Positions 11,929 to 56,264 of a stretch of 64,000 bases of DNA are shown piece by piece. This DNA comes from Rhodospirillales bacterium (lineage in GTDB: Bacteria; Pseudomonadota; Alphaproteobacteria; MPNO01; UBA2964): contig JAYOLL010000001.1 of assembly GCA_038120295.1 (NCBI GenBank), positions 205,140 through 269,139 of the forward strand, given 5' to 3'. The translations under genes were made by a program, and so were the position numbers. Each line of letters starts with the position of its first letter. Position 1 is the stretch's first letter. The notes under the pieces were generated by a model. The model worked only from the letters and a program-made list of their open reading frames with translations, did no database searches and was not told the DNA's origin.

Positions 11929-11940
11929 GGGAGACCGACC

Positions 11941-15158: not shown

Positions 15159-15279
15159 GGCTCTGATCCCCTGTCTTGCCGTCCGCAAAAAGCTTAGTCC
15201 CGAAAGGGAGATTTGCGAAGGCTGCCCTGTACCGTTTTTCCTGCCTGGGATACGCTTGCGGAAACACAGGGAGTCTCCT

Positions 15280-16932: not shown

Positions 16933-16936
16933 TCGG

Positions 16937-19270: not shown

Positions 19271-19282
19271 GAGGAAACAGAC

Positions 19283-34321: not shown

Positions 34322-34339
34322 GTTTCGCGTTTGCGAAAC
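34322..34339. promoter_or_regulatory. Inverted repeat GTTTCGC-N4-GCGAAAC in the tauD-like promoter region (candidate operator)
   Basis: Perfect 7-bp arms, 26-43 nt upstream of ATG 34365. It lies within a 285-bp non-coding leader. Confidence 0.25.
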
Positions 34340-34364
34340 TGAAAAATCCGTACCCGTCATGTCT

Positions 34365-35213
34365 GCGACCGCGGCACGATTCGTTAAGTCGTTTGAAATC
34401 GAACCGATCGGTCCGACGATCGGCGCGGAAATCCACAACCTCGACCTGACGCAGAATCTGGGCGAGGAGACCTTCGCGGCGCTTGAGGCATCGCTTATCG
34501 AGCACAAGGTCGTCTATCTGCGTGACCAGTTCCTGACCACCGAACAGCATGTCGCGCTCGGCAAGCGGTTCGGCGAGCTCGAAGTCCACCCGTTCCGGCC
34601 CGAAGGCGCGTTTCCGGAAATCATGGTGCTCGACAATCACAAGGACAATCCGGTGCTGTCGACCGATGTCTGGCATTCGGACACGACCTTCCGCGAATGC
34701 CCGACGCGTTATTCGATCCTGCGCTGCCTGGAGATGCCGGCGGTCGGCGGCGATACGCTGTGGGCCGACATGTGCGCCGCCTATGACGGGCTGAGCGAGA
34801 CGATGAAAGCCTTTATCGACGGGCTGGAAGCGGTCCACGATTTCAAGAATTTCCGCGCGCTGTTCACCAAATCCGAGGAGGATCAGGCGAAGCTGAACCG
34901 GATGGAAGAGCTTTACCCAAACCCGACCCATCCTGTTGTACGCACCCATCCGGTGACAGGCCGTAAGGTGATTTACGTTAATCCGCAGTTCACGCTCCAT
35001 ATCAAGGGTATGAATCCGGATGAAAGCCGCGCGCTGCTGGACCTTCTGTACGAGCAGGCGCATGTGCCGGAATACCAGTTCCGGCTGCGCTGGAAGGCGG
35101 GCACCATCGTGATGTGGGACAACGCCTCGACCCAGCATTACGCCGCCAACGACTACTATCCCAATCGCCGCCACATGGAACGCGTGGCGGTGATCGGCGA
35201 CAGGCCATACTGA
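34365..35213 (+). CDS. TauD/TfdA-family Fe(II)/2-oxoglutarate dioxygenase
   Basis: 282 aa. WHSDTTF (HxD), a distal His, and R near the C-terminus (WDNASTQHYAANDY). Confidence 0.8.
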   Translation, partial: ATAARFVKSFEIEPIGPTIGAEIHNLDLTQNLGEETFAALEASLIEHKVVYLRDQFLTTEQHVALGKRFGELEVHPFRPEGAFPEIMVLDNHKDNPVLSTDVWHSDTTFRECPTRYSILRCLEMPAVGGDTLWADMCAAYDGLSETMKAFIDGLEAVHDFKNFRALFTKSEEDQAKLNRMEELYPNPTHPVVRTHPVTGRKVIYVNPQFTLHIKGMNPDESRALLDLLYEQAHVPEYQFRLRWKAGTIVMWDNASTQHYAANDYYPNRRHMERVAVIGDRPY

Positions 35214-35225
35214 CCGTTTTCCCGT

Positions 35226-37124: not shown

Positions 37125-37145
37125 TTTGCGCTCCTGACTGCCGCC

Positions 37146-37925
37146 CTAACCGCCGACCGGTACGCGTTCGGCTGCAAACGCAGGGTCCCCGGCTGCTTCG
37201 GCGCGGGCGAGTTTTCGGCAATAGTAGCGCCACAGCGTCGCGCCGCCGATGATGGCGGGGTCGAGCGATGCGCCGGTGGCCAGCTTTTCGATCAGTTCAT
37301 CTTCCTCCGGACATGAATAGGACAGGCCGGACGCATTGATCGCCAGCGCTTCGCGGCACATTTTCTCGAGCGCTATGCCCACCAGCACCGGATCGCAGAT
37401 TTCTACCCCGCAGGTGACGATCCCGTGATTGCGCAGCAGGATCGCGGTTCCGGCGCCCATCGCCCTGGTCATCGAGTCCGCGGCTTCGACGGTATTGATC
37501 AGGTCGGCAGGCCCATCCCAGCGCGGCGGGCGCACCGGCTGCGTGGTGCTCCGCGGCACCACGGTGCGCAGCGGCTCCTCCGACGCCGAATAGACCGAGG
37601 CGTAGAACGGGTGCGTATGGGCCGTGACATTGATCTCGGGCCGCTGCTTCATGATCTCGGTGTGGATCGGCCACTCGTTGTGCGATCGACCGTCACCGCC
37701 GATCAGCTTTCCATCCCAGTCGAGCAGGACGAAATCCCGAGCGTCGAACACCTCGCCCAGGGCGATACCGGCGCGCTTCATCCAGATGCCGCGACCGTCA
37801 GGGTCGCGCAGCGCCATATGCCCGACGACGCGGTCGCCATGGCCCTCGAGTTCGAACACCCGGCAGGCCCGCGCCAGCTCGTCGAGATCGGCACGCAGGC
37901 TGTTGCTCATTTGCTCCATAAGCAT
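37146..37925 (-). CDS. Class II aldolase/adducin family protein
   Basis: 259 aa. VTAHTHPFYASVYS and NHGIVTCG metal-binding His motifs. Confidence 0.8.
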   Translation of the reverse strand: MLMEQMSNSLRADLDELARACRVFELEGHGDRVVGHMALRDPDGRGIWMKRAGIALGEVFDARDFVLLDWDGKLIGGDGRSHNEWPIHTEIMKQRPEINVTAHTHPFYASVYSASEEPLRTVVPRSTTQPVRPPRWDGPADLINTVEAADSMTRAMGAGTAILLRNHGIVTCGVEICDPVLVGIALEKMCREALAINASGLSYSCPEEDELIEKLATGASLDPAIIGGATLWRYYCRKLARAEAAGDPAFAAERVPVGG

Positions 37926-38006
37926 CTCCTGTTCATCTCTTCCATTTTGCTATGTCCGGGGCACGGGGGCTGTCCAGAGAGAGCCTGTCATCGTACCTTA
38001 TCCAGC

Positions 38007-39572
38007 ATGCGAGGTCGCCCGAATATTGTCCTGATCGTCACCGATCAGCATCGTGCCGATCATCTGGGATGCTATGGCAATCCGGTGGTGCGAACGCCCA
38101 ATATCGACAGCATCGCGGCGGACGGGACGCGGTTCGAGCGGTTTTATGTGGCGAGCCCCGTCTGCATGCCGAACCGGGCGTCGCTGATGACGGGCCGCAT
38201 GCCGTCGCTGCACGGGGTGCGCCATAACGGGATCGCTCTGTCGGCGGAGCACGTGACCTTCGTTGAACTGCTGGCTGCCGCCGGATACCGCACCGGGCTT
38301 ATCGGCAAGTCTCACCTGCAGAACTTCACCGGAGCGCCGCCGACGCGGGATTTTCCTGAAATTGAAGGGCTGGAGGCGCCGCCCGCCGATCTTCGGGAAG
38401 CGGACCGCCGGCACCGGCAGGGCGCGTTCTACGATATCGAGAACCAGACGCTATGGGACGATCCGGAACACGGCGTTTCCTTGCCGTTCTACGGGTTCCA
38501 GCACGCGCGGATATGCACAGGTCATGGCGATCTGGTGGGTGCCGACTATCTGCGCTGGCTGAAGGAAAAGGGCGGCGATGCGGACGCGCTGGTCGGCGAA
38601 GGGAACGCGCTGCCGGATCAGCGCCGCGTCGGTCCGCAGGTCTGGCGCACCGCCGTTCCGGAAGAGCTCTACCCGACGCGCTATGTCGAGGAGCTTTCCA
38701 TCGAGTTTCTCGAACAGGCGGCCGGGACGGGTGATCCGTTTTTCGCCCAGATTTCCTTCCCGGATCCACACCATCCGTTCACGCCCCCCGGCCGTTACTG
38801 GGAAATGTACGACCCTGACGAAATCGATCTCCCGTCCTCGTTCGGCAAGGGCGATCTCCGCGCGCTGCAATATCTCTGGCAGGCGCGCGAGGCCGGTACG
38901 GCGGTCCGCACCTCGGCGACAGTGCCATTTGCCGTCTCCGAGGAAGAAGCCCGCGTTCTGATCGCGCTGACCTACGGCATGATCACGATGGTCGATGATG
39001 CGGTGGGGAATATTCTTTCGACGCTCGACAGGCTGAACATCGCTGACGACACGGTGGTGATGTTTACAAGCGACCACGGCGACTTCATGGGCGACCACGG
39101 CATCATGCTGAAATACCTGCTTCACTATCAGGGGCTGATCAGGGTCCCGTTTGTCTGCCGTGTGCCGGGACAGGCGGGGGATGTCAGGGCCGGACTCGGC
39201 CAGACCATCGATATCGGCGCGACGGCGCTCGGGCTCGCCGGTCTGCAGCCTTTCAACGGCATGCAGGGACGCGACCTGCTGTCGACAGAAGCGCCCAAAG
39301 AGTTGCTGGTTGAGGAAGATTCCATCATCCGCATGTTCGGCGACGATCCGGGGGACCGCGTTCGCACGCTGGTAACTGACCGCTGGCGCCTGTCCTGCCA
39401 CCAGGAAGCGGGCTGGTGGGAGCTGTACGATCTGGAGAACGATCCGGATGAGATCGAGAATTTGTGGGGCTCGGACGACTATCGGGATATCGCCGACGAT
39501 CTTATGCAGAAACTGATCGTAAAGATGATCGATCTGCAGGACCGCAGCCCCCTGCCGAGCGGGCGCGCCTGA
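38007..39572 (+). CDS. Sulfatase (arylsulfatase family, Cys-type formylglycine site)
   Basis: 521 aa from ATG 38007 (MRGRPNIVLIVTDQHRADHLG). CMPNRASLMTGR (C-x-P-x-R FGly motif). GKSHL. Confidence 0.85.
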   Translation: MRGRPNIVLIVTDQHRADHLGCYGNPVVRTPNIDSIAADGTRFERFYVASPVCMPNRASLMTGRMPSLHGVRHNGIALSAEHVTFVELLAAAGYRTGLIGKSHLQNFTGAPPTRDFPEIEGLEAPPADLREADRRHRQGAFYDIENQTLWDDPEHGVSLPFYGFQHARICTGHGDLVGADYLRWLKEKGGDADALVGEGNALPDQRRVGPQVWRTAVPEELYPTRYVEELSIEFLEQAAGTGDPFFAQISFPDPHHPFTPPGRYWEMYDPDEIDLPSSFGKGDLRALQYLWQAREAGTAVRTSATVPFAVSEEEARVLIALTYGMITMVDDAVGNILSTLDRLNIADDTVVMFTSDHGDFMGDHGIMLKYLLHYQGLIRVPFVCRVPGQAGDVRAGLGQTIDIGATALGLAGLQPFNGMQGRDLLSTEAPKELLVEEDSIIRMFGDDPGDRVRTLVTDRWRLSCHQEAGWWELYDLENDPDEIENLWGSDDYRDIADDLMQKLIVKMIDLQDRSPLPSGRA

Positions 39573-40801: not shown

Positions 40802-41590
40802 TTATTCCGCGAGAATTTTCTGAATCTTCGGCCAGGCGTCCGCGCCCTTCTCTGCCATAAGCTCGCAATAGGCCTCGTTGCGCCAGTCTAGATAGCCGGG
40901 CCTGAAATTCGGCCTTGCCTTTATCGCTTCGTAGAGTTCCGTCACGCGCGGCTTGTCGTCCATCCAGCCCCAGAGCTGCAGCTCGTCGAGACGGATCAGA
41001 TAGGGCGTGTACCCAATCTCGGCGAGAGAGTAACTCGACCCCGCCATCCATTCGGTCTTCTGTAGCTGTGTATCGAGGTCATGGACGAATCTATCGAACG
41101 CGCGGACGGCTTCGGCGAATTGCGGCGCGTCCATGCCGAGCTCGATCTGCTGCCGCTGGCGTTCGCGGCGCTTCGGGTCGGGGATGCCGTCGATATAGGC
41201 TTTGAGTTCCTCTGCCGGGCGCGCCAGATGCTGGAAACGGAAGGCGATCGAGCCCGACAGCACGCCGGTATAGTAGTGCAGCACCTCGTCCAGCCACTTG
41301 GTCCATTGCCGCATGCGCGCCCGCTCGGCGGGAGAGGCCGGGCGCACCGGCGGGTCGGGGAAAGCGTCGTCGATATATTCGCAGATCACGGTGGATTCGA
41401 TGACGACCGTGCCGTCATGCACCAGCGTCGGCACGACGCCGTTGGGGTTTAGCTCCAGATAGTCAGGGGCGTGCTGGTCGCGGGTCCGCAGATTGAGCAG
41501 GTGCCCCTCCCACTCCAGCTCTTTCTCGGCGAGCAGAAGCCGGATTTTCTGGGCGCAGGTCGACATGTCCGCGTGGTAGAGTTCAATCAT
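40802..41590 (-). CDS. Glutathione S-transferase family protein
   Basis: 262 aa. N-terminal thioredoxin-like GST domain (MIELYHADMSTCAQKIRLLLAEK...VPTLVHDGTVVIES) and a C-terminal helical domain. Confidence 0.8.
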   Translation of the reverse strand: MIELYHADMSTCAQKIRLLLAEKELEWEGHLLNLRTRDQHAPDYLELNPNGVVPTLVHDGTVVIESTVICEYIDDAFPDPPVRPASPAERARMRQWTKWLDEVLHYYTGVLSGSIAFRFQHLARPAEELKAYIDGIPDPKRRERQRQQIELGMDAPQFAEAVRAFDRFVHDLDTQLQKTEWMAGSSYSLAEIGYTPYLIRLDELQLWGWMDDKPRVTELYEAIKARPNFRPGYLDWRNEAYCELMAEKGADAWPKIQKILAE

Positions 41591-41706: not shown

Positions 41707-42696
41707 ATGGCAAAGCTCACCCTCAGTCTCGCCTGCTGCGATTACGATCGGACCCGCGCCCTGTTCGACGGGCGCGTCCCGGTCGAGGGATGCGAGGTGG
41801 TCGGCGTTCCGATGTCGCCCGAAGAAGCGTTTCACCGGGCATTCAAGTACCAGGAATTCGATGTCACGGAACTGTCGATGTCGAGTTACATGAACGTCCT
41901 GTCGCGCGACAACAGCCCCTATATCGGCATTCCGGCTTTCGTCTCGCGCCTGTTTCGTCACAGCTCGATCTATATCCGTACCGATCGTGGGATCGAAAAG
42001 CCGGAAGACCTGAAAGGAAAGACCATCGGCGTTCCGGAATACCAGATGACGGCGGCGCTCTGGGTACGCGGCATTCTGCATGACGAATACGGGGTGCGGG
42101 CCGAAGACATTTCCTGGCGCAATGGCGGGCTGGAAGAAGGCGGGCGCGAGGAACGCGCACCGCTGCATCTCCCCGATACGATTGATCTCCAGAGTATCCC
42201 GAAAGACGAAACCCTGGCGCAGCAGCTCGACGACGGCCGGCTGGATGCGGTCATTTCCGCCCGCGCGCCCTCGACCTACTACACCAACGAAAATATCGAC
42301 CGGCTGTTTCCCGATTATAAGACGGCCGAGCAGGCCTACTATGCCAAGACCGGCATGTTCCCGATCATGCATCTTGTCGGCGTAAGGCGGTCCATTGTGG
42401 AGAAACATCCCTGGCTGCCGGTCAATCTCTATGTCGCCTTCCTGAAAGCCAAGGCGCTCTGCTACGAGGAGATGGAGCAGGTCGGTCACCTGGCGCACAC
42501 CATGCCCTGGCCGGTCTACGAGCTGGAGCAGGTGCGCAAGCTGATGGGGCCGGATCACTGGAAGTACGGAATCCAGGAGAACGAGAAGGAAATCTCGGCC
42601 GTGACCCGCTATTCGTTCGAACAGGGAATTTCGGCCCGCAAGCTCGAGGCGGAAGATCTGTTCGCAGAGGCGACTTTCGAGCTGTACAAGCTCTAG
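41707..42696 (+). CDS. 4,5-dihydroxyphthalate decarboxylase-like protein (PhtD family, SBP-like fold)
   Basis: 329 aa. MAKLTLSLACCDYDRTRALFDG N-terminus characteristic of the PhtD-like family. Confidence 0.65.
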   Translation: MAKLTLSLACCDYDRTRALFDGRVPVEGCEVVGVPMSPEEAFHRAFKYQEFDVTELSMSSYMNVLSRDNSPYIGIPAFVSRLFRHSSIYIRTDRGIEKPEDLKGKTIGVPEYQMTAALWVRGILHDEYGVRAEDISWRNGGLEEGGREERAPLHLPDTIDLQSIPKDETLAQQLDDGRLDAVISARAPSTYYTNENIDRLFPDYKTAEQAYYAKTGMFPIMHLVGVRRSIVEKHPWLPVNLYVAFLKAKALCYEEMEQVGHLAHTMPWPVYELEQVRKLMGPDHWKYGIQENEKEISAVTRYSFEQGISARKLEAEDLFAEATFELYKL

Positions 42697-42707: not shown

Positions 42708-43313
42708 ATGACGCGGATTGCGCCGCTTAGGCGCGAGGATCATCCCGACCTCGACGAGAAGTTCTTCAGGCCCTACGAGGAATCGCGCGGCTATGTGCCG
42801 AACTCCAACCTCGTTATGGCTCGCAGACCCAAGGTGCTGGCGGCGTTCCGCGCGCTGAACGCGGCGGTGTTCGATCCTGAGAACAGCGTACCTGCCGGGT
42901 TGCTTGCGCTGGTCGGGAATATCGCGAGCCAGGCTGCAGGTTGCATGTATTGCGTCGCGCATACGGCTAACAATGCGGGTATTCACGGCGTCGATGCGGC
43001 AAAAGTCGCGGCGCTGTGGGAATATGAGACCAGCCCGCTGTTCGACGATGCCGAACGGGCGGCGCTGCGGTTCGCCCAGGCGGCAGCGTCGGTGCCCAAT
43101 ATGGTGACGGACGAGGACGTCGATGCCGTGAAGGCGCATTTCGGCGAAGACGGCGCGGTGGAAATCCTGACGGTGGTGTCCTGGTACGGATTTCTCAATC
43201 GCTGGAACGACAGCCTCGCGACGGACCTGGAAGAGGTCGCCTTTGATAAGGCGTCGGATACGCTGGCTTCGACCGGCTGGGATGCCGGCAAGCATCGCCC
43301 GCCGACGCGTTAG
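42708..43313 (+). CDS. Carboxymuconolactone decarboxylase (AhpD-like) family protein
   Basis: 201 aa. CMYCVAHT (CxxC/H AhpD-fold motif). Confidence 0.75.
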   Translation: MTRIAPLRREDHPDLDEKFFRPYEESRGYVPNSNLVMARRPKVLAAFRALNAAVFDPENSVPAGLLALVGNIASQAAGCMYCVAHTANNAGIHGVDAAKVAALWEYETSPLFDDAERAALRFAQAAASVPNMVTDEDVDAVKAHFGEDGAVEILTVVSWYGFLNRWNDSLATDLEEVAFDKASDTLASTGWDAGKHRPPTR

Positions 43314-43322
43314 GGAATCGGG

Positions 43323-44195
43323 TTACGAAACGCCGATTTGCGCGCGCACCGTTTTCGACAGTGTGCTTTCGGAATCGAGATATTCGTTGATCGTCGTGAA
43401 GTGATGCTTGCCCTGCATCACCCAGGCGCTGACGTCATGACCCTGGGCCGACCAGGTAGAGGCGAGATCCTCGGACTGACGAACGAACTCGGGGCCCTCA
43501 TCGCCTCCAACCAGCAGTAGCAGCGGCGCCACGCGACCGGGCGTCATCAGGACCGGACTGAATTCCTCGGCTTCTTTCGGAGAGAACTGCAGATCGTCGT
43601 TCTGGAACGACAGCCGCACGGGTTCGAGGTCGTACACGCCGCTTATCCCGCAGCCCGCCTTGACCAGATCAGCCGGCAGGTCTTCGGCATAGGAAGGCCA
43701 GTCGGTAGATGCCAGCATTGCCGTGATGTGCCCGCCTGCGGAATGACCGGAAACCGTGATGTTATCGGGATCGCAATCCATCTCTGCAGCGTTGCGCCAC
43801 ACCCAGGCCATCGCTGCGCGGCACCGCTCAATCAGCGTGTCCATACGTACGCCCGGAATAAGAGGATATTCGACCACCACCGTCGTCACCCCGTAGGGAA
43901 CGAACGGCTTGGCGACAAACCCGAAATCGTTCTTGGTGTTCGATTTCCAGTATCCGCCGTGAAAAAACACATGTACGGGACGCGGGCCTATCGACTCTCC
44001 GTGATAGATGTCGAGCAGATCGGTCGAGCCGGAACCGAACCGGTGATCCAGCAGGGTGTGATATTGCGCCTTGGCCTCGTCCGACCCGGAGATTTGCGCG
44101 GCCTTGCATTCTGCCGTATCGGGCACCTTGCCGCGATTATTGTATTCCCAGTCCAGCGCTTCCTGATCGTAGCTGCGAAATACCGGTTCTGCCAT
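43323..44195 (-). CDS. Alpha/beta-hydrolase (esterase/arylformamidase-like)
   Basis: 290 aa. HGGYW oxyanion motif, SGHSAGG nucleophile elbow. Confidence 0.75.
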   Translation of the reverse strand: MAEPVFRSYDQEALDWEYNNRGKVPDTAECKAAQISGSDEAKAQYHTLLDHRFGSGSTDLLDIYHGESIGPRPVHVFFHGGYWKSNTKNDFGFVAKPFVPYGVTTVVVEYPLIPGVRMDTLIERCRAAMAWVWRNAAEMDCDPDNITVSGHSAGGHITAMLASTDWPSYAEDLPADLVKAGCGISGVYDLEPVRLSFQNDDLQFSPKEAEEFSPVLMTPGRVAPLLLLVGGDEGPEFVRQSEDLASTWSAQGHDVSAWVMQGKHHFTTINEYLDSESTLSKTVRAQIGVS

Positions 44196-44343
44196 GGGAG
44201 TCCTCGATTGTGATTATCACGGGAAAAACATTGTGATGACGTAGAAATATAGTTGCAAATCCCGCTTGGGTCAAAATGCCGTCCGTATTGACCCTTGGCC
44301 TTATTTTGACAGAATAGCATTTCTTCGAACGGAATATGGAAAA

Positions 44344-44685
44344 ATCATGCCTTCCAAGGAAGATCCCGGACGCGGTTATCATGATATTGGCGGACTCGAT
44401 GCCGGGTCCATCCCGCTTGAAACGACGGACATGAAGCCGTGGGAGAAGCTGTCGACCGCTATCAGCAATGCTCTTGGCGCGGGGGGACGGGGTTATTACG
44501 TCACGGACGAATCAAGGCGCGCGCGCGAACAGATGGGCGATCCACCCTATAGCGATCTTGGATATTTCGAACGCGCAACAGAATCGATGAAGATGGTGCT
44601 GATCGAGAAGGGACTGTTTTCATCCGAAGAGCTCGAATCTCGGATGAAGGAAATCGAACAGCGTATGGCAGAGGCGCGCAAATGA
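44344..44685 (+). CDS. Nitrile hydratase beta subunit, N-terminal half (SCNase-beta/ToyK-like split subunit)
   Basis: 113 aa. HDIGGLDAGSIP matches the NHase-beta N-terminal HDLGG motif. Its stop overlaps the next ATG (ATGA). Confidence 0.7.
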   Translation: MMPSKEDPGRGYHDIGGLDAGSIPLETTDMKPWEKLSTAISNALGAGGRGYYVTDESRRAREQMGDPPYSDLGYFERATESMKMVLIEKGLFSSEELESRMKEIEQRMAEARK

Positions 44686-44966
44686 GTGCGCTCTATCAGG
44701 CTGGCGATCGGGTGAGGGTCATTGCGACCAACCCGCCCGGTCATCGAAGGACGCCATACTATATTCGCGGCAAGGTGGGCGAAGTCGAACGGGTGTGCGG
44801 CGCGCATCCGAATCCGGAGGAACTCGCTTACGGATTCGATGGCCTGCCGGCGAAGATGCTCTATCGTGTCCGGTTCAAACAGAAAGAGGTCTGGGATGCC
44901 TATTCGGGACCCGAGACCGATACGGTCGATGTCGACATCTACGAACACTGGCTTCGTCCAGCGTAA
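44682..44966 (+). CDS. Nitrile hydratase beta subunit, C-terminal half (SCNase-alpha/ToyL-like split subunit)
   Basis: 94 aa. GDRVRVIATNPPGHRRTPYYIRGKVGEVERV...YRVRF...VDVDIYEHWLRPA matches the NHase-beta C-terminal barrel. Confidence 0.7.
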   Translation: MSALYQAGDRVRVIATNPPGHRRTPYYIRGKVGEVERVCGAHPNPEELAYGFDGLPAKMLYRVRFKQKEVWDAYSGPETDTVDVDIYEHWLRPA

Positions 44967-44983
44967 TTCAGAGGAGATTTGAA

Positions 44984-45682
44984 ATGGCTGCTGACGAACG
45001 CGGACATCAACACGACCATGGTCATGATCACGATCATGACCACGACCACGAACATCCGCACGATCATGACCGGACATTCCAGCCCGATATCGAAGACGAG
45101 CCGCCCGGTCGCTACGAACTGATGACCTATGCGATCCGCGAACTGCTGATCGAGAAGGGTAATCTGACCGGCGAAGAAATCCGCAAGGCCCAGGAAAAGA
45201 TCGATAGCTGGGAAGTATCCCAGGGCGCCCGGATCGTTGCTCGCGCCTGGACCGACCCGGATTACAGGAGCCGCTTGCTGGAGGATGGCAATTCCGCGAT
45301 GGCGGAGTTCGGCATCGAACCCGGCGGAGCCAAGATGACGGTGGTCGAAAACACCGACAAGGTTCAGAACGTCATCGTCTGTACGCTGTGCTCCTGCTAT
45401 CCGCGTGCAGTTCTCGGCCTGCCGCCGGACTGGTACCGTTCGAAAAGCTATCGCTCTCGCGTCGTCGTCGAGCCACGCGAGGTGCTGAAAGAGTTCGGCA
45501 CCGAGGTTCCCGATGACATGGCGGTCAGGGTTCACGACAGCCTGGCGGATCTGCGCTATCTGGTGCTGCCGCGACGGCCGGAAGGAACGGAAGGCTGGAG
45601 CGAGGAACAGCTCGCCTCCATCGTAACGCGCGATACCATGGTCGGCGTTGCCAACCCCGTTGCGGACGCCTCCAAGAGCTGA
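44984..45682 (+). CDS. Nitrile hydratase alpha subunit, Co-type, with an N-terminal poly-His/Asp extension
   Basis: 232 aa. Metal site VIVCTLCSCYPRAVLGLPPDWYRSKSYRSR (the Thr/Tyr variant of cobalt enzymes). Residues 8-29 read HQHDHGHDHDHDHDHEHPHDHD. GGAGA RBS upstream. Confidence 0.85.
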   Translation: MAADERGHQHDHGHDHDHDHDHEHPHDHDRTFQPDIEDEPPGRYELMTYAIRELLIEKGNLTGEEIRKAQEKIDSWEVSQGARIVARAWTDPDYRSRLLEDGNSAMAEFGIEPGGAKMTVVENTDKVQNVIVCTLCSCYPRAVLGLPPDWYRSKSYRSRVVVEPREVLKEFGTEVPDDMAVRVHDSLADLRYLVLPRRPEGTEGWSEEQLASIVTRDTMVGVANPVADASKS

Positions 45683-45694
45683 TCGGTTCCACCT

Positions 45695-48034
45695 ATGCCC
45701 GACGATCTGATCGGCGTCTCGCGTCGCCGGCTTGAAGATTACGACCTCCTGACCGGCAATGCGTCCTTCGTCGACGATCTGCGGCTCGACGGCATGCTGC
45801 AGGCAGCCTTTGTGCGCAGCGCCCATGCTCACGCGACTATAGGAACCGTCGATCTGTCGGCTGCGCGCGCCGCGCCAGGCGTTGTCGCCGCATACGCGAT
45901 CGACGATCTGGCTGACGTGCTGACACAGGACCGCATTCCCGAAGGGTTTCCCAAGCCGGGTCTGCGCAATGAGGTCGGTCCATACGTTCTGGCGCGTGAC
46001 GAGGTCTGTTATGTCGGCGAACCCATTGCAGTCGTCATCGCCGACACACGGTACCGGGCGGAGGACGCGGCGCAGCTTGTCGAAGTCGAGTACGACCCTC
46101 TGCCGGCAGTCGGAGACCCCCGCGACTCTGCGGCAGACGGCGCTTCGGTCGTCAACAGGCGTAGCGGCGAGAACACCGTCGGGCGCTACGCGCTGGAGAC
46201 CGGCGATGTCGATGCGGCCTTCAACACCGCCGCTCATGTCGTAAAGGCGAAGCTGCGCCAGCATCGCGGGTGTTCGCTGCCGATGGAATGCCGGGGCGTT
46301 GCGGTACGCTACGATCCACGCCGCCGCAAGCTTACGCTCTGGAGTTCCAACCAGGCGCCGCATTCGCACAAGAGCATCATCGTTTCCCTGTTCGGGCTTT
46401 CGGAAGGCGATGTGCGGGTCATCGTACCGTCGGTCGGCGGCGGGTTCGGGCCCAAGCTGCTGTTCTACCCTGAGGATGCCTCCGTGACCGCTGCGGCGAT
46501 CAAGCTCGGCCGTCCGGTAAAGTGGATCGAGGATCGGCGCGAACATCTGATGTGCACGACCCAGGAACGCGACCAGTTCTGGGACGTCGAAATGGCTGCT
46601 GATACGGAAGGTCGCGTGGTCGGATTGCGCGGCACGCTCTGGCATGACCAGGGCGCCTACACGGCTCGCGGCACCAACATTCCGTTTTCTTCAGCCACCA
46701 CCATTCTCGGTCCCTATATCATCCCGACCTACCGGATGAATGTGGTGATCGCGCATACCAACAAGGTTCCGGCAACATCGATGCGGGGCGCGGGCCATCC
46801 CCAGGGCTGTTTCACGATGGAGCGGCTGCTCGACCGGCTGGCCGTGGCGACCGGGATCGACCGGGCGGAAATCCGCGTGCGCAACATGATCCGGCCCGAG
46901 CAGATGCCTTACGAACATCCGCTTCGTACGCAGGCGGGACAGCGGATCATCTATGACAGCGGCGACTATGCGAAATGCCAGGCGGACCTGCTGGACGCGA
47001 TGGATTACGACGGGTTCGCGGCGCGTCAGCGGGCGGCGCGGACCGAGGGCCGTTATCTGGGCATTGGCATCGCCAACTATGTGAAGCCGACGGGGCGGGG
47101 TCCGTTCGAAACCGGGCTGGTGCGCATCGGCACCTCGGGCAAGGTGATGGTCTATAGCGGCGGCGTCGCGATGGGGCAGGGGTTCCATACCGCCATGGCC
47201 ACCATCGCGGCCGAACAGCTGGGCGTCAGTCCCGACGATGTCTCCGTTGTGGCGGGGGATACTGACGGGGTGCCGCGCGGCATAGGCGGGTTCGCCAGCC
47301 GGCTGACGGTCTGCGCCGGTTCGTCGGTTCACCTCGCGTCGGTAAAGCTGCGCGAAAAAGTCCTGGCGATCGCGGCCAACCTGCTGGAAGCCTCGGCCGA
47401 GGACCTGGAACTGATCGATGGCAAGGTGTTCATCAAGGGGGTGCCGGGGATCGAGGTGTCGTTCAGCCAGGTCGCGCAGGCGGTGGCGGGGATGCCGGGA
47501 GTCTCTCTGCCCGAGGGGATGTCCCCCGGACTTGAGGCAGACGCGAGTTTTCAGCCGGAGAACGTGGTCTACGCCAATGGCGCGCATGCGGCGGAGGTGG
47601 AAATCGACCCCGACACCGGGCGCATTCGCCTGCTGCGTTACGTGGTCGTGCATGACAGCGGCCGGCTCATAAACCCGATGATCGTCGACGGTCAGGTGCA
47701 GGGCGGCGTCGCCAACGGACTCGGCAATGCCTTGTTCGAGGAAATGATGTTCGACGACGACGCGATGCCGCTCTCGACCAACCTGGCCGAGTATCTGGCG
47801 CCCACCGCGCCGGAACTGCCGAATTTCGAGATCATCCATCAGGTCTCGCCGACCGACCGAAACCCCATCGGCGTCAAGGGCGTCGGCGAATGCGGCGTTA
47901 TGTCCGCCGCCCCGTCCGTCCTGTCGGCTATTGAGAACGCGCTGGACGAATTCGGCGTGACCCTGGACTCCCATCCGGTTACGCCCATGATGCTCGTCGA
48001 AAAGATCAATGAACACCGCAACAGGGAGAAGTAG
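45695..48034 (+). CDS. Xanthine dehydrogenase/aldehyde oxidase-family molybdopterin-binding large subunit (orphan, second copy)
   Basis: 779 aa. MPDDLIGVSRRRLEDYDLLTGNASFVDDL N-terminus, GGGFG, MoCo-domain motifs. 12 nt after the NHase alpha stop. Confidence 0.85.
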   Translation: MPDDLIGVSRRRLEDYDLLTGNASFVDDLRLDGMLQAAFVRSAHAHATIGTVDLSAARAAPGVVAAYAIDDLADVLTQDRIPEGFPKPGLRNEVGPYVLARDEVCYVGEPIAVVIADTRYRAEDAAQLVEVEYDPLPAVGDPRDSAADGASVVNRRSGENTVGRYALETGDVDAAFNTAAHVVKAKLRQHRGCSLPMECRGVAVRYDPRRRKLTLWSSNQAPHSHKSIIVSLFGLSEGDVRVIVPSVGGGFGPKLLFYPEDASVTAAAIKLGRPVKWIEDRREHLMCTTQERDQFWDVEMAADTEGRVVGLRGTLWHDQGAYTARGTNIPFSSATTILGPYIIPTYRMNVVIAHTNKVPATSMRGAGHPQGCFTMERLLDRLAVATGIDRAEIRVRNMIRPEQMPYEHPLRTQAGQRIIYDSGDYAKCQADLLDAMDYDGFAARQRAARTEGRYLGIGIANYVKPTGRGPFETGLVRIGTSGKVMVYSGGVAMGQGFHTAMATIAAEQLGVSPDDVSVVAGDTDGVPRGIGGFASRLTVCAGSSVHLASVKLREKVLAIAANLLEASAEDLELIDGKVFIKGVPGIEVSFSQVAQAVAGMPGVSLPEGMSPGLEADASFQPENVVYANGAHAAEVEIDPDTGRIRLLRYVVVHDSGRLINPMIVDGQVQGGVANGLGNALFEEMMFDDDAMPLSTNLAEYLAPTAPELPNFEIIHQVSPTDRNPIGVKGVGECGVMSAAPSVLSAIENALDEFGVTLDSHPVTPMMLVEKINEHRNREK

Positions 48035-48583
48035 ATGCCGCGGATCGACCCCATCGATATGGACAACCTGACAGAGGAACAGAAGGCCGTCGCCGCCAAG
48101 ATTGTTTCCGGGCCGCGCGGCGAAGTTCGCGGACCGTTCCGTGTGCTGATGCACAGCCCCGAACTGGCCGATGCGGTTCAGACCATGGGAGCCTATGTGC
48201 GGTTTAATGCGGAACTGCCCTGGAAGCTGCGCGAACTGGCGATTCTCGTAACAGCGCGTCACTGGAACTGCTCCTACGAGTGGTTTGCGCACGAAAAGGA
48301 GGCTCAGAAGGCCGAGCTGGACCAGGGCATTATTGATGCCATCCGAATTCGCGAGAAGCCGAACTTCACTGAGGAAGCGGAAGAGGAAATCTGGAATTTC
48401 TGCACCGAGTACTACGCCAACACCAAGGTTAGCGACGCGACCTTCCAGAAGATCATCGACCGGCACGGCAAACGGGGCGCGGTCGACCTCGCCGGGCTGC
48501 TCGGCCATTACAATGCCATTGCGGCGACGCTGAATATCTTCCAGGTGGAAGTGCCGGACGGATCGTCGCCTTTGCCCGATTAA
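48035..48583 (+). CDS. Carboxymuconolactone decarboxylase-family protein
   Basis: 182 aa. Its ATG abuts the stop of the Mo-hydroxylase gene. HWNCSYEWFAHE AhpD-like helix motif. Confidence 0.7.
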   Translation: MPRIDPIDMDNLTEEQKAVAAKIVSGPRGEVRGPFRVLMHSPELADAVQTMGAYVRFNAELPWKLRELAILVTARHWNCSYEWFAHEKEAQKAELDQGIIDAIRIREKPNFTEEAEEEIWNFCTEYYANTKVSDATFQKIIDRHGKRGAVDLAGLLGHYNAIAATLNIFQVEVPDGSSPLPD

Positions 48584-49488: not shown

Positions 49489-49523
49489 GCTAGGACATGA
49501 TCCGCTTACGCGGATGCGCACCG

Positions 49524-49585
49524 GCCCACTCCCCCACCCGGCCACCCACGAGAGTATCCTGATGGGTGGCCGGGTGGGGGAGTGG
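49524..49585. repeat. Palindromic intergenic repeat, copy 2 (23-bp perfect stem, 16-nt centre)
   Basis: CCCACTCCCCCACCCGGCCACCC-ACGAGAGTATCCTGAT-GGGTGGCCGGGTGGGGGAGTGGG. It contains the reverse complement of the 28-nt core shared with 27827-27896. Confidence 0.7.
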
Positions 49586-49612
49586 GCGGGCGCTGTCTAA
49601 CATGACTTCGCG

Positions 49613-50479
49613 CTAGAACGTCGCGCCGGACTCCAGCCAGGCGTCGACGATTTCCTCGCCGGTGGCGAACCACACATCGTCGTGGCCCTTGATGTAATCC
49701 AGCGCCGATTCGAGCGCCCAGATCCGGTGCGAGACGCCGATTACGAATGGGTGCAGGCAGATCGCCATCACTCGACCGGATTCAGCGCCCTCCATGTAAA
49801 GACGGTCGAACTGCCGCCGCATCATCAATTCGAACTCGTCGCTCGATTTGCCGGTGCGGAACTGCGGGAGATCGTTGATCTCGGTCGAGTAGGGGAGCGA
49901 CACCATTTTTCGGTCGCCCGCGTCGATAAAATAAGGCTGGTCGTCATTGACCCAGTCGCACACGTAATCGAGGCCCTCACCGGCCAGATAATCCAGCGTA
50001 TGCCAGGTCTCCTGCAAGCCGGACCCAAGCCAGCCGCGCGGCTTTCGGCCAGTTGTCTGCTCGATCCGGGCGAGTGTGTCGCGTACCAGCTTTTCGTCGC
50101 CTTCGGGCGGGGTTTCATGAAAAGGCCGCGAGTTGCTCTGGTTGTGACCGAGAAACTCCCAGCCGAGCGCCATCGCGTCTTCCATGATCTCCGGGTAGAC
50201 GTCGCAGACCTCGGAGTTGAGCGTGACCGACGCCCGTATGTCGCGCGACGACAGCGCGTCCATGATGCGGAATACCCCGATCCGCGCCCCATAATCGCGC
50301 TGTGACCAGGAGGAAACCTCCGGGACATGGCCGCGCGAGCCCGGCACCACCTCGTTCAGCGGGAAGAACTCGATATTAGGGATCACCCAGACGGCGACAC
50401 GCGCGCCGTTGGGCCATTTCAGGGTCGGTCGCCGGTTGATCGGCGTGTAGGGAAAAGGCCCGTAGCGGCGCGGCTCCAT
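49613..50479 (-). CDS. Polysaccharide deacetylase-family (PuuE/allantoinase-like) hydrolase
   Basis: 288 aa from ATG 50479 (MEPRRYGPFPYTPINRRPTLKWPNGARVAVWV). NodB-like His/Asp motifs (LGHNQ, CLHPFVIG). Confidence 0.7.
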   Translation of the reverse strand: MEPRRYGPFPYTPINRRPTLKWPNGARVAVWVIPNIEFFPLNEVVPGSRGHVPEVSSWSQRDYGARIGVFRIMDALSSRDIRASVTLNSEVCDVYPEIMEDAMALGWEFLGHNQSNSRPFHETPPEGDEKLVRDTLARIEQTTGRKPRGWLGSGLQETWHTLDYLAGEGLDYVCDWVNDDQPYFIDAGDRKMVSLPYSTEINDLPQFRTGKSSDEFELMMRRQFDRLYMEGAESGRVMAICLHPFVIGVSHRIWALESALDYIKGHDDVWFATGEEIVDAWLESGATF

Positions 50480-51186
50480 CAGACGACCTCTTTCAGCCCG
50501 GCGGAGCCGAGCAGCTTCTGGACCACCTCGCCTACATGCATGACGTCGGCGTATTTGTGGTGCATGTCGAACAGGTTCACCTTGTGCGACAGTTCGCTGC
50601 GGTCGAAACAGCATTCCTCGGCCAGAGTAACGTGAATGCCGTTGGAGTAGGCGTCGACGACGGATGCACGGACGCAGCCGGACGTGCTTTCCCCGCACAC
50701 AATCAGGCTCTGGACGCCCATTTGGTGAAGCTGGGCAATCAGCGGCGTACCGTAGAACGCGCTGGCGCGCTGCTTGTAAACAATTAGGTCTCCTTCCTGA
50801 GGCGCGAACTCTTCCTTGATCTGCCAGACATCGTCTGATTTCGGCTTGTTCTGGCGCGAGGTGGCGTAGGCCTTGCCGACATTGGCTTCGGTGCGGGCTT
50901 CCGTGGTCGAATAGATGACAGGAATGCCGACCGCCCGGGCCGCCTTGAACAGGCGTTCAGTCGGCTCGATGGCGTTCCAGGCGTTCTCGCCGCAGGAGCT
51001 GGGGAATTCGCCCATCAGGTCGTGTACCGGCTTTGAACCGCCCTGATAGGCAAGCTGATACAGGTCGATAGCCAGCAACGCCGGCTTTTCGCCGATATAG
51101 GTTTCACGCTCGTAGGCGCTGTAAATATCGAGGACCTTGGGGTCGACGATGTCCTGCCAGCAATGATCTTCGAATTTCGACACCAT
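50479..51186 (-). CDS. Isochorismatase-family cysteine hydrolase (amidase-like)
   Basis: 235 aa from ATG 51186 (MVSKFEDHCW). Catalytic Cys in LIVCGESTSGCVR. Its stop overlaps the next ATG by 1 nt. Confidence 0.75.
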   Translation of the reverse strand: MVSKFEDHCWQDIVDPKVLDIYSAYERETYIGEKPALLAIDLYQLAYQGGSKPVHDLMGEFPSSCGENAWNAIEPTERLFKAARAVGIPVIYSTTEARTEANVGKAYATSRQNKPKSDDVWQIKEEFAPQEGDLIVYKQRASAFYGTPLIAQLHQMGVQSLIVCGESTSGCVRASVVDAYSNGIHVTLAEECCFDRSELSHKVNLFDMHHKYADVMHVGEVVQKLLGSAGLKEVV

Positions 51187-51304: not shown

Positions 51305-53995
51305 CTAGGTCGACTGGTCGGCGGGGCGTCCGCGCAGTTCGGCCACCACGCGGACGAATTCTCCCTCGAGTGCATCGAACAGCGCGTCGGCGTTATCGAT
51401 GACATGTTCGGCGCTCATCTGTTCGAGTTCTTCACAGAGCTTCGGAAGGCTCAGGGCGCCGAGGTTCGCGCTGGCGGATTTGAGCTTGTGTGCAGCGAAC
51501 TGGGCCGCCGCGACATCCCGGTTCTTCAGGGCGGTTTCGATCTCATTCACCGTGTCCGGCGCCGTCCGCAGATAAACGTCCGTAATCTTTCGCAGCAGTT
51601 CCGCCGAGAAGCCGGAAGGAGGAGCGCCTACAGCGGGACCGTCCGTCGGCTCACTATCTATCGGCCCATCGTCATCCTGCAATGCTGACGGGGCCGGGGA
51701 AGCGGTGCTGGAACATTTGTATATCTTTTCGAGCAGATCGACGGGATCGAACGGTTTGGAGGCGTAGTCGTTCATTCCTGCCGCGAGATACTCCTCCCGG
51801 TTCCCGGCCATGGCATTGGCGGTAAGCGCAATGATCGGCGTGTCGCAGCCCAGAGTGCGTATCGCCCTTGTCGCGGATATACCGTCCATTACGGGCATCT
51901 GTATATCCATCAGGATCACGTCATAAGCGGCGTTGCGAACCGCCGCTACCGCTTCCTGGCCGTTCTGCGCAACGACGACGGTGTGACCGGCTTCCTGGAG
52001 CAGCGCGATGGCGATTTCCTGGTTCACCACGTTGTCTTCGGCGAGCAGAATTATCCGGGTCGGGGACACATTACCCACATTCGTTGCACTTTCGCGGAAT
52101 CCAACCGCGCCAGGGTCCGCTACAATCCGCTTTGCGGGTTCGCAGAGGACCGTAAACCAGAAGGTCGAACCTTTGCCCGGTACGCTGTCCACGCCGATGT
52201 CGCCGCCCATCAAACGCGTCAACTCCTGGCATATCGCGAGTCCGAGACCGGTGCCGCCGAACTCCCGTGTCGTCGAGGTATCGGCCTGCGAAAATTTCTC
52301 GAAGATCGTTGCCGTCTTGTCGGGACCGATCCCGATCCCGGTATCGGTAACTTCGAACCGGACAAGGAGACTGCCGTCCGCCGTATCCATGTGCGAGACG
52401 GCAATGTTGATGCCGCCGCGCTCGGTGAACTTGATCGCATTGCCGACAAGGTTGAACAGCACATGTTTGATACGACCGAAATCGCCGCTCAACGTCTCCG
52501 GCGTACCGGGCGCGATGGTTACTCGGTAGTCGACGCCTTTCTCGTGCGCCCGCGATTTCATCAGCGCGCCGACTTCGTCGATCAGCCGGGAAAGCGGAAA
52601 ATCTACACGTTCGAGATCGAGTTTCCCGGCTTCGACCTTGGAGATATCGAGTATGTCGTTGATAAGGCTGAGAAGCGCCTCGCCGGACTGCCTGATGCGC
52701 GAGGCGTAATGTCGCTGTTTTTCGTTCAGCCCGGTTTTGAGAAGCAGGTGCGCCATGCCGAGAAGACCGTTCATCGGCGTCCGTATTTCATGACTCATCG
52801 TCGCCAGAAATTCGGATTTGGTCTGGCTGGCCTGTTCGCCCTTTCTGGTTTCAAATTTGAGGGCCCGCGTTCTCTCTTCAACGCGGTTCTCGAGGTCGGC
52901 GTTGAGCGCTGTCAGCTTGCGCTCGGACCACTGTATTTCCTGCATCTGCAGCGCGAGCATATCTTCTCTCGACTGCAGGGCGTCGGCCATATTGTTGAAC
53001 TCGCTCGCAAGATCTCCCAGACCGTCCCGGTCCGGTATCTCGATCCGCCCGGTCAGGTCGCCGGAACTGATCCGGCGCGCACCTTCCGCTACCAGCCGGT
53101 GCCTCTGCGATATTTTTCTCGGGAGGAAAAATGACAGGTAGAGGATGATTGCTCCCCCGGTCAGCCCCAGTAAGACGAATAATATCTGATCGTTGTTCGC
53201 GTTTTCGATCAGTCGGGACTGGTACGCGTTGAAGTTCTTTTCCAGCTTCGTTGAAAGAGACCGGATCTGGCGACGGGCGTCGATTTCTTCGCGAAATACC
53301 TCCTTGCGAATGTCGTCCAGGCTTGTACCGCTGAGTTCCTGCTGGATCGCATCGGCATAGGCAAACAGGCTCGCCCGATAGCGAAATAGCGGCGTCAGAC
53401 CGGCAACCGCGGTTTCTTGCAGACCGAGTTGCCGCATCAGGCCGTCGTGTTCGTGATCGTGGTGATTGTGGGATTTTTTGTCGCCAAGATGATCGCGGAA
53501 CCATGTCAGTAGCCCAATGCTTTTTTCGACCGGCGCGAGGACATCTGCTACAGAATGTCGGGGGCGCTCGAAGTACCGGCGAATTTCCTCTTCCACCTGA
53601 AGGAGCGTCTGACTTTTTTTCGAGGCCAGGTCAGAAAACGCGATCGACCTGGCGCCGCGGGCCACGAACCCGTTAAAAGCAGTGCGAAAAATCGCCAGTG
53701 ACGTGATGGTTTCTTTCTGCAGCTGGTTCGCCGTGTCCGACGAAGGGTCGACGGCTTCTTCCTGGAGATAGGCGCTAAAAGCTGAGATTATTCGATCCGA
53801 TTTCAGGGCGGGGCTGTTGCCGGACGGGAGTGGTTTCGGCTTTAGGGCAGATGCGCCGTTACCGGCGATCTGTAATTCGATGCGTCTCAGTTCAGAGAGC
53901 GAATCCTGGATGTTTCCCGGCGTCAGGTCCCGGTACGCATCCATCTGCCTGAATTCGACCGCCGACTTTGAAATCAGACTGTCTACGCGCGTCAA
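51305..53995 (-). CDS. Hybrid sensor histidine kinase (periplasmic domain-TM-HAMP-HisKA-HATPase-REC-HPt), as annotated from a TTG start; N-terminal TM helix apparently severed
   Basis: HisKA H-box ([13 protein letters not shown]), N/G1/G2 boxes. REC ([14 protein letters not shown]...[14 protein letters not shown]). C-terminal HPt ([12 protein letters not shown]). The upstream in-frame codon 54068-54070 is TAG. Confidence 0.8.
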
Positions 53996-55292: not shown

Positions 55293-56264
55293 ATGAAGTA
55301 TCGCAAACTTGGCTGCTGCACAGATGACGTATCTGCCATCGGGCTCGGTGGGATGGCGATGACCGCGATCTATGGTCCTGCCGACAAGGGAGAGGCCATC
55401 GCGACGACCCATGCCGCGCTCGATGCCGGGATGAATTTCATCGACACGTCGGATGCCTATGGCGGCGGCGGAAACGAGGAAATGCTGGGCGAGGCGCTGA
55501 AGGGCGGTTATCGCGACAGGGCGTTTCTCGCTACCAAGTTCGGGAATCTGGGCGGCAGCGCCGACGGACGGCCCGAATATGTCGTCGAGGCCTGCGACAA
55601 GAGCCTGTCGCGGCTCGGAATCGACGTCATCGATCTCTATTTCCAGCATCGCGTGGATAGGGACGTGCCGATCGAGGACACGGTGGGCGCGATGTCGAAG
55701 CTGGTAGAGCAGGGCAAGGTCCGCTGGCTCGGCCTGTCCGAAGCCGGCCCCGATACGATCCGTCGGGCGCACGCGACCCACCCTATTGCAGCGCTACAGA
55801 CCGAATATTCGCTCTGGACCCGCTTCGTCGAGACCGATTACCTGCCGCTGCTACGCGAACTCGGCATCGCGCTCGTCGCTTATTCGCCGCTCGGGCGCGG
55901 CATGCTGACCGGCACCATCGACGGGTTCGACAGCCTGGCGGAAAATGATCGCCGCAAGGACCATCCGCGGTTCCAGCAGGGCAATATCGAGGCGAATGTA
56001 GAGATCATCCAGCCCCTCAAGGCCATCGCGGATGAGAAAGGCGTGTCGACCGCGCAGCTTTCCATCGCGTGGCTCCTGGCGCAGGGCGACGACATCGTGC
56101 CGATCCCGGGAACCAAACGGCGCGAGCATCTGATGGACAATATCGCGGCTGTCGATCTGGAGCTCTCGGCCGACGATATCGCGCGAATTGGCGGAGCGGT
56201 TAAAGCCGATGACGTGTCCGGAACGCGCTATCCGGCAGGTCAGCTGCCCGGTCTGGGTATCTAG
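55293..56264 (+). CDS. Aldo/keto reductase
   Basis: 323 aa. IDTSDAYGGGGNEE, LYFQHRVD, and IPGTKRREHL C-terminal signature. GGGAGAG RBS upstream. Confidence 0.85.
   Translation: MKYRKLGCCTDDVSAIGLGGMAMTAIYGPADKGEAIATTHAALDAGMNFIDTSDAYGGGGNEEMLGEALKGGYRDRAFLATKFGNLGGSADGRPEYVVEACDKSLSRLGIDVIDLYFQHRVDRDVPIEDTVGAMSKLVEQGKVRWLGLSEAGPDTIRRAHATHPIAALQTEYSLWTRFVETDYLPLLRELGIALVAYSPLGRGMLTGTIDGFDSLAENDRRKDHPRFQQGNIEANVEIIQPLKAIADEKGVSTAQLSIAWLLAQGDDIVPIPGTKRREHLMDNIAAVDLELSADDIARIGGAVKADDVSGTRYPAGQLPGLGI

Follow-up and report, generated by a model that had tools for sequence, protein, structure and literature searches.

Here we describe a block of five genes in a 64,000-nucleotide stretch of DNA from a Rhodospirillales bacterium (assembly GCA_038120295.1, contig JAYOLL010000001.1, positions 205,140 to 269,139 of the forward strand), referred to below as the 64-kb window and numbered from its first letter. 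All five genes lie on the plus strand. The first two encode the halves of a nitrile hydratase (NHase) beta subunit: beta-N (44347 to 44685, 112 aa), which resembles AnhD and ScnB and matches PF21006 at 55 bits, and beta-C (44682 to 44966, 94 aa), which resembles AnhE and ScnA and matches PF02211 at 80 bits. They are followed by alpha, a cobalt (Co)-type NHase alpha subunit (44984 to 45682, 232 aa; PF02979, 263 bits with a cut-off of 27), by MoL, a xanthine-oxidase-family molybdopterin-binding large subunit of the CoxL/QorL/KdhL kind (45695 to 48034, 779 aa; PF01315, PF02738 and PF20256), and by CMD182, a CMD-family protein (48035 to 48583, 182 aa; PF02627, 29.6 bits with a cut-off of 23). A preliminary description of this DNA had listed the five plus-strand open reading frames (ORFs) together with the motifs VCTLCSCY, HDIGG, GDRVRV and YRVRF, all of which we found in the translations. 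It had placed beta-N at 44344 to 44685. The gene stands, with a corrected start: codon 44344 encodes Ile, and translation starts at the ATG of 44347, as it does in the gene calls made on identical contigs.

The junctions between the genes are tight and read in the sequence as they had been described. The two beta genes overlap by 4 nt in an ATGA, beta-C and alpha are separated by 17 nt containing an AGAGGAG ribosome-binding site, MoL begins 12 nt after alpha, and the TAG of MoL is followed immediately (0 nt) by the ATG of CMD182. A sequence scan found no terminator-like site on the plus strand inside the block, and neither a terminator nor a promoter-like site in the interval between alpha and MoL. 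Upstream lies a divergent control region (44269 to 44315, plus strand) whose inverted repeat, GGTCAA (44269-44274)-N13-TTGACC (44288-44293), forms two back-to-back -35 boxes. In a consensus scan, the TTGACC arm was the -35 box of a sigma-70-like candidate promoter about 30 nt 5' of beta-N, with a -10-like box, CAGAAT, preceded by TG (44310-44315), while the GGTCAA arm was the -35 box of a divergent alpha/beta-hydrolase gene. We compared the region with at least 131 related loci, collected from genome and metagenome scans and labelled L001, L002 and so on. The GGTCAAA...TTGAC core and a TG-GAAAAT box are kept in the same intergenic region of L007, L009, L011, L059 and L132. The promoter at 44269-44315 is a predicted one. 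From the short gaps, the lack of an internal plus-strand terminator and the conserved divergent -35 pair, we infer that the five genes form a single operon. The inverted repeat (44269-44293) could also serve as an operator; no regulator gene is conserved in the cluster described below.

Several features assign the first three genes to the NHases. The alpha subunit passes the TIGR01323 NHase alpha equivalog, marginally (250.9 bits with a cut-off of 249.85), shares about 55% identity with solved Co-NHase alpha chains, which score 208-223 bits in the PDB ranking, and carries a metal claw, VCTLCSCY, that aligns with the claw of the Co-NHases 4ob1 and 2dpp. Thr and Tyr in the NHase claw are the mark of the cobalt type. 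In the literature on NHases, two conserved Arg residues of the beta subunit bond to the oxidised Cys ligands, and here each beta half contributes one of them. The Arg of DESR in beta-N, which also carries HDIGG, aligns with the conserved DE-x-R Arg of PDB NHase beta chains. The GDRVRV...GHRR stretch of beta-C aligns with residues 129-219 of the P. putida Co-NHase beta subunit (56 bits), with GHRR at the GHTR position. The alpha core, the claw and the beta Arg residues are shared with the classical two-subunit Co-NHases (P. putida 3qxe, Pseudonocardia 1ire, Bacillus 2dpp), whereas the beta subunit of those enzymes is fused. The N-terminus of alpha is rich in His and Asp, with 11 His among the first 30 residues (HQHDHGHDHDHDHDHEHPHDHD), and this is general across the clade with a split beta subunit. 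The eukaryotic fused beta-alpha NHases (Monosiga and others; PMC3323583) likewise have a His-rich stretch directly N-terminal to alpha, with beta before alpha, but they are single polypeptides where the window encodes three. Judged on its sequence, 44347-45682 is a non-corrin cobalt NHase made of three polypeptides, of the ScNHase/ToyJKL type; its cobalt content, Cys modification and nitrile hydration activity are predicted. The earlier identification of an NHase-like, Co-type alpha subunit agrees with the domain and equivalog matches as well as with the claw motif.

The fourth gene product, MoL, comprises a hammerhead domain followed by MoCoBD_1 and MoCoBD_2. Over its full length it aligns with the large subunits of Mycobacterium CoxL (8uem), 6-hydroxypseudooxynicotine dehydrogenase (7dqx) and quinoline 2-oxidoreductase (1t3q) at 459-513 bits, against about 177 bits for true xanthine dehydrogenases; it is closest to the large subunits of 7dqx and 1t3q. 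As in those CoxL-type enzymes, the catalytic Gln, GGGFG, Arg and Glu are kept. Gln220 (SNQAPH), GGGFGPK, Arg364 (SMRGAGHPQ) and Glu732 (GVGECG) are invariant in 116 full-length MoL homologues, which argues that MoL is, as far as sequence can tell, an intact catalytic subunit. We rejected its identification as a form I CO dehydrogenase (CODH). Mycobacterium CODH (8uem) has a Cys-Ser-Phe-Arg copper loop (AY-x-CSFR) where MoL has SMRGAGHPQ, and MoL falls below both CODH equivalogs (520 bits with a cut-off of 991 for TIGR02416, and 740 with a cut-off of 950 for NF040766). In the source annotations, the CoxL-like homologues are mostly called by the generic names 'CO dehydrogenase large subunit' or 'xanthine dehydrogenase family protein'.

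CoxL-type hydroxylases work with a small subunit (2x[2Fe-2S], CoxS) and a medium subunit (FAD, CoxM). In contrast, neither a regular-expression motif search nor tblastn queried with the L114 subunits revealed a homologue of CoxS or CoxM in the 64-kb window, and none lies within 10 kb on either side of any NHase-linked MoL orthologue. The same searches found both subunits in the control loci L114, L133, L134 and L135 (L078 matched the CoxS query only), and a hidden pair in the window was therefore rejected. Thus, MoL is an orphan large subunit at this scale, as had been claimed. Paralogues of MoL at 53-56% identity sit in coxM-coxS-L operons; in one of these, M-S-L-L, a single M/S pair is accompanied by two large-subunit genes. 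A 64% identical orthologue in a Hyphomicrobiales metagenome-assembled genome (MAG) stands alone, 4 kb from a separate coxS-coxM-coxL set. Finally, the window holds a second large subunit lacking such partners (16937-19270, plus strand, 777 aa), 35% identical to MoL. The M-S-L-L operon, the lone orthologue and the second lone subunit together make supply in trans the most economical and most likely explanation: MoL would rely on [2Fe-2S] and FAD subunits encoded at other sites of the genome, possibly shared ones. The cluster would offer a tractable case for studying how orphan CoxL-like subunits obtain their electron-transfer partners.

The association of these genes is not confined to one organism. 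We found alpha-MoL(-CMD182) in this order at 15 distinct loci from marine and other Alphaproteobacteria, a Tara Rhodospirillaceae MAG and a 4.15-Mb contig among them, with gaps of 12-44 nt, alpha identities of 72-86% and MoL identities of 63-77%. CMD182 follows MoL in 10 loci and directly follows alpha where MoL is missing. In a neighbour-joining tree of alpha, the MoL-carrying loci group in one part, which also holds a soil group lacking MoL. The linkage across lineages bears out the earlier proposal of an operon-like unit containing a Mo subunit and a CMD protein. The preliminary description had further called the coupling of an NHase to a Mo hydroxylase undescribed, and the three-gene layout one known mainly from scnBAC and toyJKL. 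The latter is overstated, as detailed below. The former stands provisionally: in a limited literature search we found no description of a cluster of NHase and xanthine-dehydrogenase-family genes, the matches being only RiPP and sponge papers, and the embedding of an NHase in a conserved cluster with a partner-less Mo subunit is apparently undescribed.

Conserved synteny places the NHase operon in a cluster of some 12 genes. In all related loci whose flanks are long enough, the region upstream of beta-N holds the divergent alpha/beta-hydrolase gene (43323-44195, minus strand, 290 aa; PF20434, PF07859), whose esterase- or formamidase-like product has kynurenine formamidase 4e11 among its PDB matches (69 bits). 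Beyond it, a second CMD/AhpD-like protein with a CMYC (CxxC) motif (42708-43313, plus strand, 201 aa; PF02627, 34.8 bits; TIGR01926, 56 bits) is kept in L007, L011, L059, L062, L066 and L132. A close homologue of 4,5-dihydroxyphthalate decarboxylase (41707-42696, plus strand, 329 aa) matches PDB 9jp7 over its full length (E = 1e-94, 320 bits) and has 79-87% identical copies in related clusters. A glutathione S-transferase family gene (40802-41590, minus strand, 262 aa; GST_N and GST_C) is kept in L007, L009, L059, L066 and L132. A class II aldolase-family gene (37146-37919, minus strand, 257 aa) is a looser member and possibly encodes a decarboxylase. It scores 74 bits, below the cut-off, with NF053537, the 3,4-dihydroxyphthalate decarboxylase model, and co-occurs in L009, L059, L063, L065 and L132; its PDB search was not discriminating (fuculose aldolase-like, 74 bits; Mlr6791, 46 bits).

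Downstream of the operon, a putative cyclic-amide hydrolase of the PuuE/polysaccharide-deacetylase kind (49613-50479, minus strand, 288 aa) matches TIGR03212, the allantoinase PuuE domain, at 124 bits, which is below the cut-off. In 11 related loci it is paired with an isochorismatase-family amidohydrolase gene (50479-51186, minus strand in the window, 235 aa; PF00857). The latter had been put forward as the amidase of the route. The gene is there, on the minus strand, but its product is much closer to 3ot4/3uao (97 bits) and N-carbamoylsarcosine amidase (78-84 bits) than to the nicotinamidases (about 20-27 bits); we take 3ot4/3uao to be the Bordetella maleamate amidohydrolase NicF. An aldo-keto reductase (AKR) gene (55293-56264, plus strand, 323 aa; PF00248), with 69-80% identical copies in L007, L011 and L059, adjoins this amidase pair in related loci and is displaced in the window by a histidine kinase gene and an EB_dh gene. 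The conserved core of the cluster contains no oxygenase.

We consider it probable that a ScNHase/ToyJKL-type NHase is here part of an operon and a cluster of about 12 genes that degrades a nitrile, with MoL as an accessory subunit working with borrowed partners. In our model, the NHase would convert the nitrile, most likely an N-heterocyclic or some other aromatic compound, into its amide, from which hydrolysis would give the acid. Mo hydroxylation independent of oxygen would come later, together with decarboxylation and the hydrolytic conversion of ring amides. The make-up of the cluster, with MoL, decarboxylase homologues and ring-amide hydrolases, suggests catabolism in the style of N-heterocycles, and a route for an N-heterocyclic nitrile is plausible. 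The preliminary description had proposed an N-heteroaromatic nitrile route; its general idea fits these neighbours, while the order of steps it gave is not supported.

Several points weigh against this model. With no ring-cleaving oxygenase in the conserved core, the route past the acid is conjecture. Genes for the FeS and FAD partners of MoL were not found within the window, and no ribosome-binding site is evident ahead of the MoL ATG. In L011 and L055, which nest beside the branch of the window, alpha is followed directly by CMD182 with the rest of the cluster kept; by its absence from these loci, MoL is lost in both lineages. The 64% identical MoL orthologue has a TctC/UbiD context and no NHase. 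Chemical coupling between hydration and hydroxylation may consequently be loose. A further limit on the linkage is the soil group, which branches beside two MoL-carrying loci and has neither MoL nor CMD182. From gene content, then, we take MoL to be an accessory step, conserved yet not indispensable.

A more specific version of the model would have marine Alphaproteobacteria, which seem to be common carriers in ocean metagenomes, mineralise a natural nitrile of the N-heteroaromatic kind, for example a cyanopyridine or 7-cyano-7-deazapurine, by a dedicated pathway free of oxygenases, with a self-maturing NHase feeding MoL. In that version MoL would use shared FeS/FAD partners encoded elsewhere, or conceivably no conventional partners. 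We regard it as tentative and rather unlikely in this full form. The cluster recurs in many marine assemblies, Tara samples among them, which implies that seawater regularly supplies some nitrile as a substrate; once identified, this nitrile would bring a further class of compounds into the cycling of marine dissolved organic nitrogen. By itself the enzyme type adds little, as three-subunit activator-free Co-NHases have already been characterised.

Alternatively, MoL, and perhaps CMD182, could be a syntenic passenger whose function is unrelated to the nitrile pathway and which may have its own promoter. The loss of MoL in L011 and L055, the orthologue in its TctC/UbiD context, the occurrence of CMD182 paralogues away from NHase genes and the unclear ribosome-binding site before MoL would all suit such a passenger. 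Yet the 15 distinct loci share the same insertion point between alpha and CMD182, at 12-44 nt gaps and with MoL conserved at 63-77% identity, the alpha-MoL interval has no terminator or promoter-like site, and the whole cluster moves together. We therefore judge the passenger explanation unlikely.

Distinctly unlikely, in our view, is that the cluster serves the salvage or degradation of 7-cyano-7-deazapurines of the preQ0 or toyocamycin type. In that scheme the NHase would yield the amide and an amidase the 7-carboxy compound, and a decarboxylase, purine-like Mo hydroxylation and PuuE-like ring opening would follow. Decarboxylase homologues are present, MoL is a member of the xanthine-oxidase family, the PuuE-like protein matches an allantoinase domain at 124 bits, and the three-subunit NHase studied in most depth, ToyJKL, has a 7-cyano-7-deazapurine as its substrate in the cited literature. 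Compared by description, ToyJKL of Streptomyces rimosus is also a three-polypeptide, activator-independent Co-NHase with an N-heteroaromatic nitrile substrate. The toy gene order puts alpha first (J, K, L), and the toy genes lie in a deazapurine biosynthetic cluster. Unlike that cluster, the window has no deazapurine biosynthetic genes, and no que, toy or dpd genes occur in the window or in related loci. By the bit scores given above, true xanthine dehydrogenases are more distant from MoL than CoxL, Kdh and Qor are. A riboswitch could not serve as a clue to the substrate, since an Rfam search at 40.5-52 kb gave no credible match, no preQ1-type or other riboswitch, and only spurious miRNA matches to a hairpin at 49512-49597.

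The three NHase genes could instead encode an orthologue of the thiocyanate hydrolase (SCNase) ScnBAC that makes carbonyl sulfide, with the CoxL-like MoL processing the C1 product. ScnBAC (Thiobacillus thioparus; PDB 2dd4) has three homologous subunits in the same gene order, scnB-scnA-scnC, and a cobalt centre, and alpha reaches 219.5 bits on the SCNase gamma equivalog TIGR03887 and 196 bits with the SCNase gamma chain 2dd4_C. The TIGR03887 score, however, is far under the cut-off of 291.45, whereas alpha passes its own NHase equivalog. PDB chains of NHases outscore those of SCNase for all three subunits: 211-223 against 196 bits for alpha, 35.8 against 22.6 for beta-N and 56 against 35.7 for beta-C. 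Moreover, MoL has SMRGAGHPQ in place of the CODH Cys-Ser-Phe-Arg loop, and the neighbouring genes encode homologues of aromatic-acid decarboxylases and amidases, not sulfur-oxidation enzymes. We therefore rejected the SCNase identity, on equivalog cut-offs and the rankings of all three subunits, and consider this alternative very unlikely. In the comparison between NHases and SCNase proposed in the preliminary description, all three ORFs thus score higher with NHases. The likeness to scn drawn there holds for gene order and layout; by sequence, the subunits are nearer to the classical Co-NHases.

The maturation of the enzyme raises a separate question. We built a hidden Markov model (HMM) from eight Co-type activators found downstream of fused beta genes. 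In 20 classical relatives sampled, it scored 134-198 bits downstream of fused beta, where the activator gene directly follows in the sampled alpha-beta loci. In the 64-kb window, by contrast, it matched only the beta-N ORF itself (6 bits, E = 9), and a hidden activator was rejected on this basis. Among the Pfam matches of the likely coding ORFs in the window there was likewise no CobW/COG0523 protein. The reported lack of an NhlE/P14K-type activator is thus confirmed at the scale of the window.

A close parallel, already studied biochemically, is ScNHase of Streptomyces canus, which has the gene order anhD-anhE-anhA and binds cobalt, with no activator gene in the genome (PMC7329996). Like the enzyme in the window, it has separate N and C halves of the beta subunit, genes that run beta-N, beta-C, alpha, a Co-type CTLCSC claw, no activator and a likely maturation by a beta-N self-subunit-swapping chaperone. 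It differs in being known from xenobiotic N-cyano substrates and in having no reported Mo-hydroxylase, CMD or amidase cluster. ScNHase was compared by description; the only 'Streptomyces'-labelled relative among our loci, L015, has about 54% alpha identity, falls in a different clade of the alpha tree and, with 62% GC and no deazapurine genes, was unusable as a proxy for ToyJKL or ScNHase. The activator HMM also weakly recognises the beta-N ORFs of several other split-beta loci, and this fits the action of AnhD as the ScNHase chaperone (PMC7329996). By analogy with ScNHase, we hypothesize that the NHase would mature without a dedicated activator. Here beta-N probably doubles as a self-subunit-swapping and metal chaperone, and the His/Asp-rich N-terminus of alpha may aid it. 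Genes for the cobalt transporter CbtB/CbtA lie within the orthologous cluster of L009 (4478-5405) and L132 (5785-6713), which also holds aldehyde dehydrogenase and NMT1-like genes; this speaks for a cobalt enzyme, although CbtA and CbtB are not in the window version.

As a side observation, two to four tandem beta-N paralogues lie upstream of beta-C in L078 (8353-9574), L026 (8510-9579), L079, L081 and L082. These arrays precede a single beta-C and alpha and would fit a chaperone-like second role of beta-N.

Could CMD182 replace the activator, for example by lending redox help when Cys is oxidised or cobalt is inserted? No other gene is linked to alpha as tightly. CMD182 is kept when MoL is lost, and it belongs to a CMD/AhpD family that includes redox proteins. 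However, CMD182 has a single Cys (NCSYEW) and no CxxC, and it does not occur in any other split-beta locus that lacks an activator, those of the soil sister clade among them, nor, apparently, in L061; ScNHase matures without any such protein. Its paralogues of about 50% identity sit in NHase-free catabolic clusters with genes for an aldehyde dehydrogenase, an AKR, two PEP-mutase/isocitrate lyase (ICL)-like proteins, an aconitase and hydantoinase A/B, which argues that CMD182 would be a pathway enzyme rather than a maturation factor. With these paralogues and the split-beta loci that lack it, we rejected a maturation role, which we hold to be most improbable. A PDB search found no solved structure that matches CMD182 by sequence.

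The division of the beta subunit into two genes, already recognised in the preliminary description, extends well beyond this organism. The identical arrangement is present in six independent assemblies of the same organism (L001-L006). Counting only loci in which both halves could be scored, separate beta-N and beta-C genes stand upstream of alpha in 80 of 80 (about 65 distinct) with alpha identity of at least about 52%, whereas fused beta genes occur in nine classical NHase loci with alpha identity of at most 50%. In view of this uniformity, the split is, on the loci compared, genuine, ancient and clade-defining. The view that one beta gene was broken by a frameshift of sequencing or assembly would have the 4-nt overlap in its favour, but we give it almost no credence and ruled it out, as the same split recurs in L001-L006 and in the distinct relatives, many of these have an intergenic gap between the halves in place of an overlap, and the split matches the characterised anhD/anhE (PMC7329996). 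Nor is the three-gene layout unusual, as had been thought: ScNHase has it (PMC7329996), as do the 80 scorable loci across the clade. A single metagenome scan yielded more than 500 relatives of this split-beta, His-rich-alpha NHase. The split-beta, activator-less, His-rich-alpha form is thus a large environmental clade and not a Streptomyces curiosity, cleanly apart from the sampled fused-beta classical enzymes, most of which have an activator gene. Enzymes of this form may also be easier to express for biocatalysis.

Finally, the second Mo subunit of the window (16937-19270) starts 4 nt past a UbiD-like decarboxylase gene (15157-16932) and likewise has no CoxS or CoxM in the window. The same region (9115-20014) contains two PEP-mutase/ICL-like genes, aconitase-like ORFs, an Amidohydro_2 gene and an enoyl-CoA hydratase gene. 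In L136 and L137, CMD182 paralogues adjoin the same set of two PEP-mutase genes and an aconitase gene, and the two Mo-subunit clusters of the window may for this reason be functionally connected. The aconitase-like ORFs (11941-13215 and 13020-13727, plus strand) overlap by about 195 nt, probably through a mis-assigned start of the second.

Other minor observations concern the neighbourhood of the operon. In L132 (14962-16711, on the 4.15-Mb contig), the AKR is truncated (202 aa) beside a DDE transposase gene, an insertion-sequence insertion within the cluster. The hairpin at 49512-49597, between an EamA gene and the PuuE-like gene, gives sub-threshold matches to eukaryotic miRNAs on both strands and is probably a terminator or a structural hairpin, not a known RNA. 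The hybrid histidine kinase next to the cluster (51305-53995, minus strand, in the window; 16322-19159 in L002 and L003) is a single 945-aa gene in some assemblies of the same organism and two pieces of 561 and 241 aa in others, reflecting either a disruption at strain level or an error of assembly; other lineages do not conserve it. Upstream, at 34299-39572, the genes for a TauD-like dioxygenase, an arylsulfatase-like protein, a major facilitator superfamily (MFS) transporter and a 632-aa fusion of a QuiC-like 3-dehydroshikimate dehydratase to an HPPD-like domain are specific to the neighbourhood of this organism.

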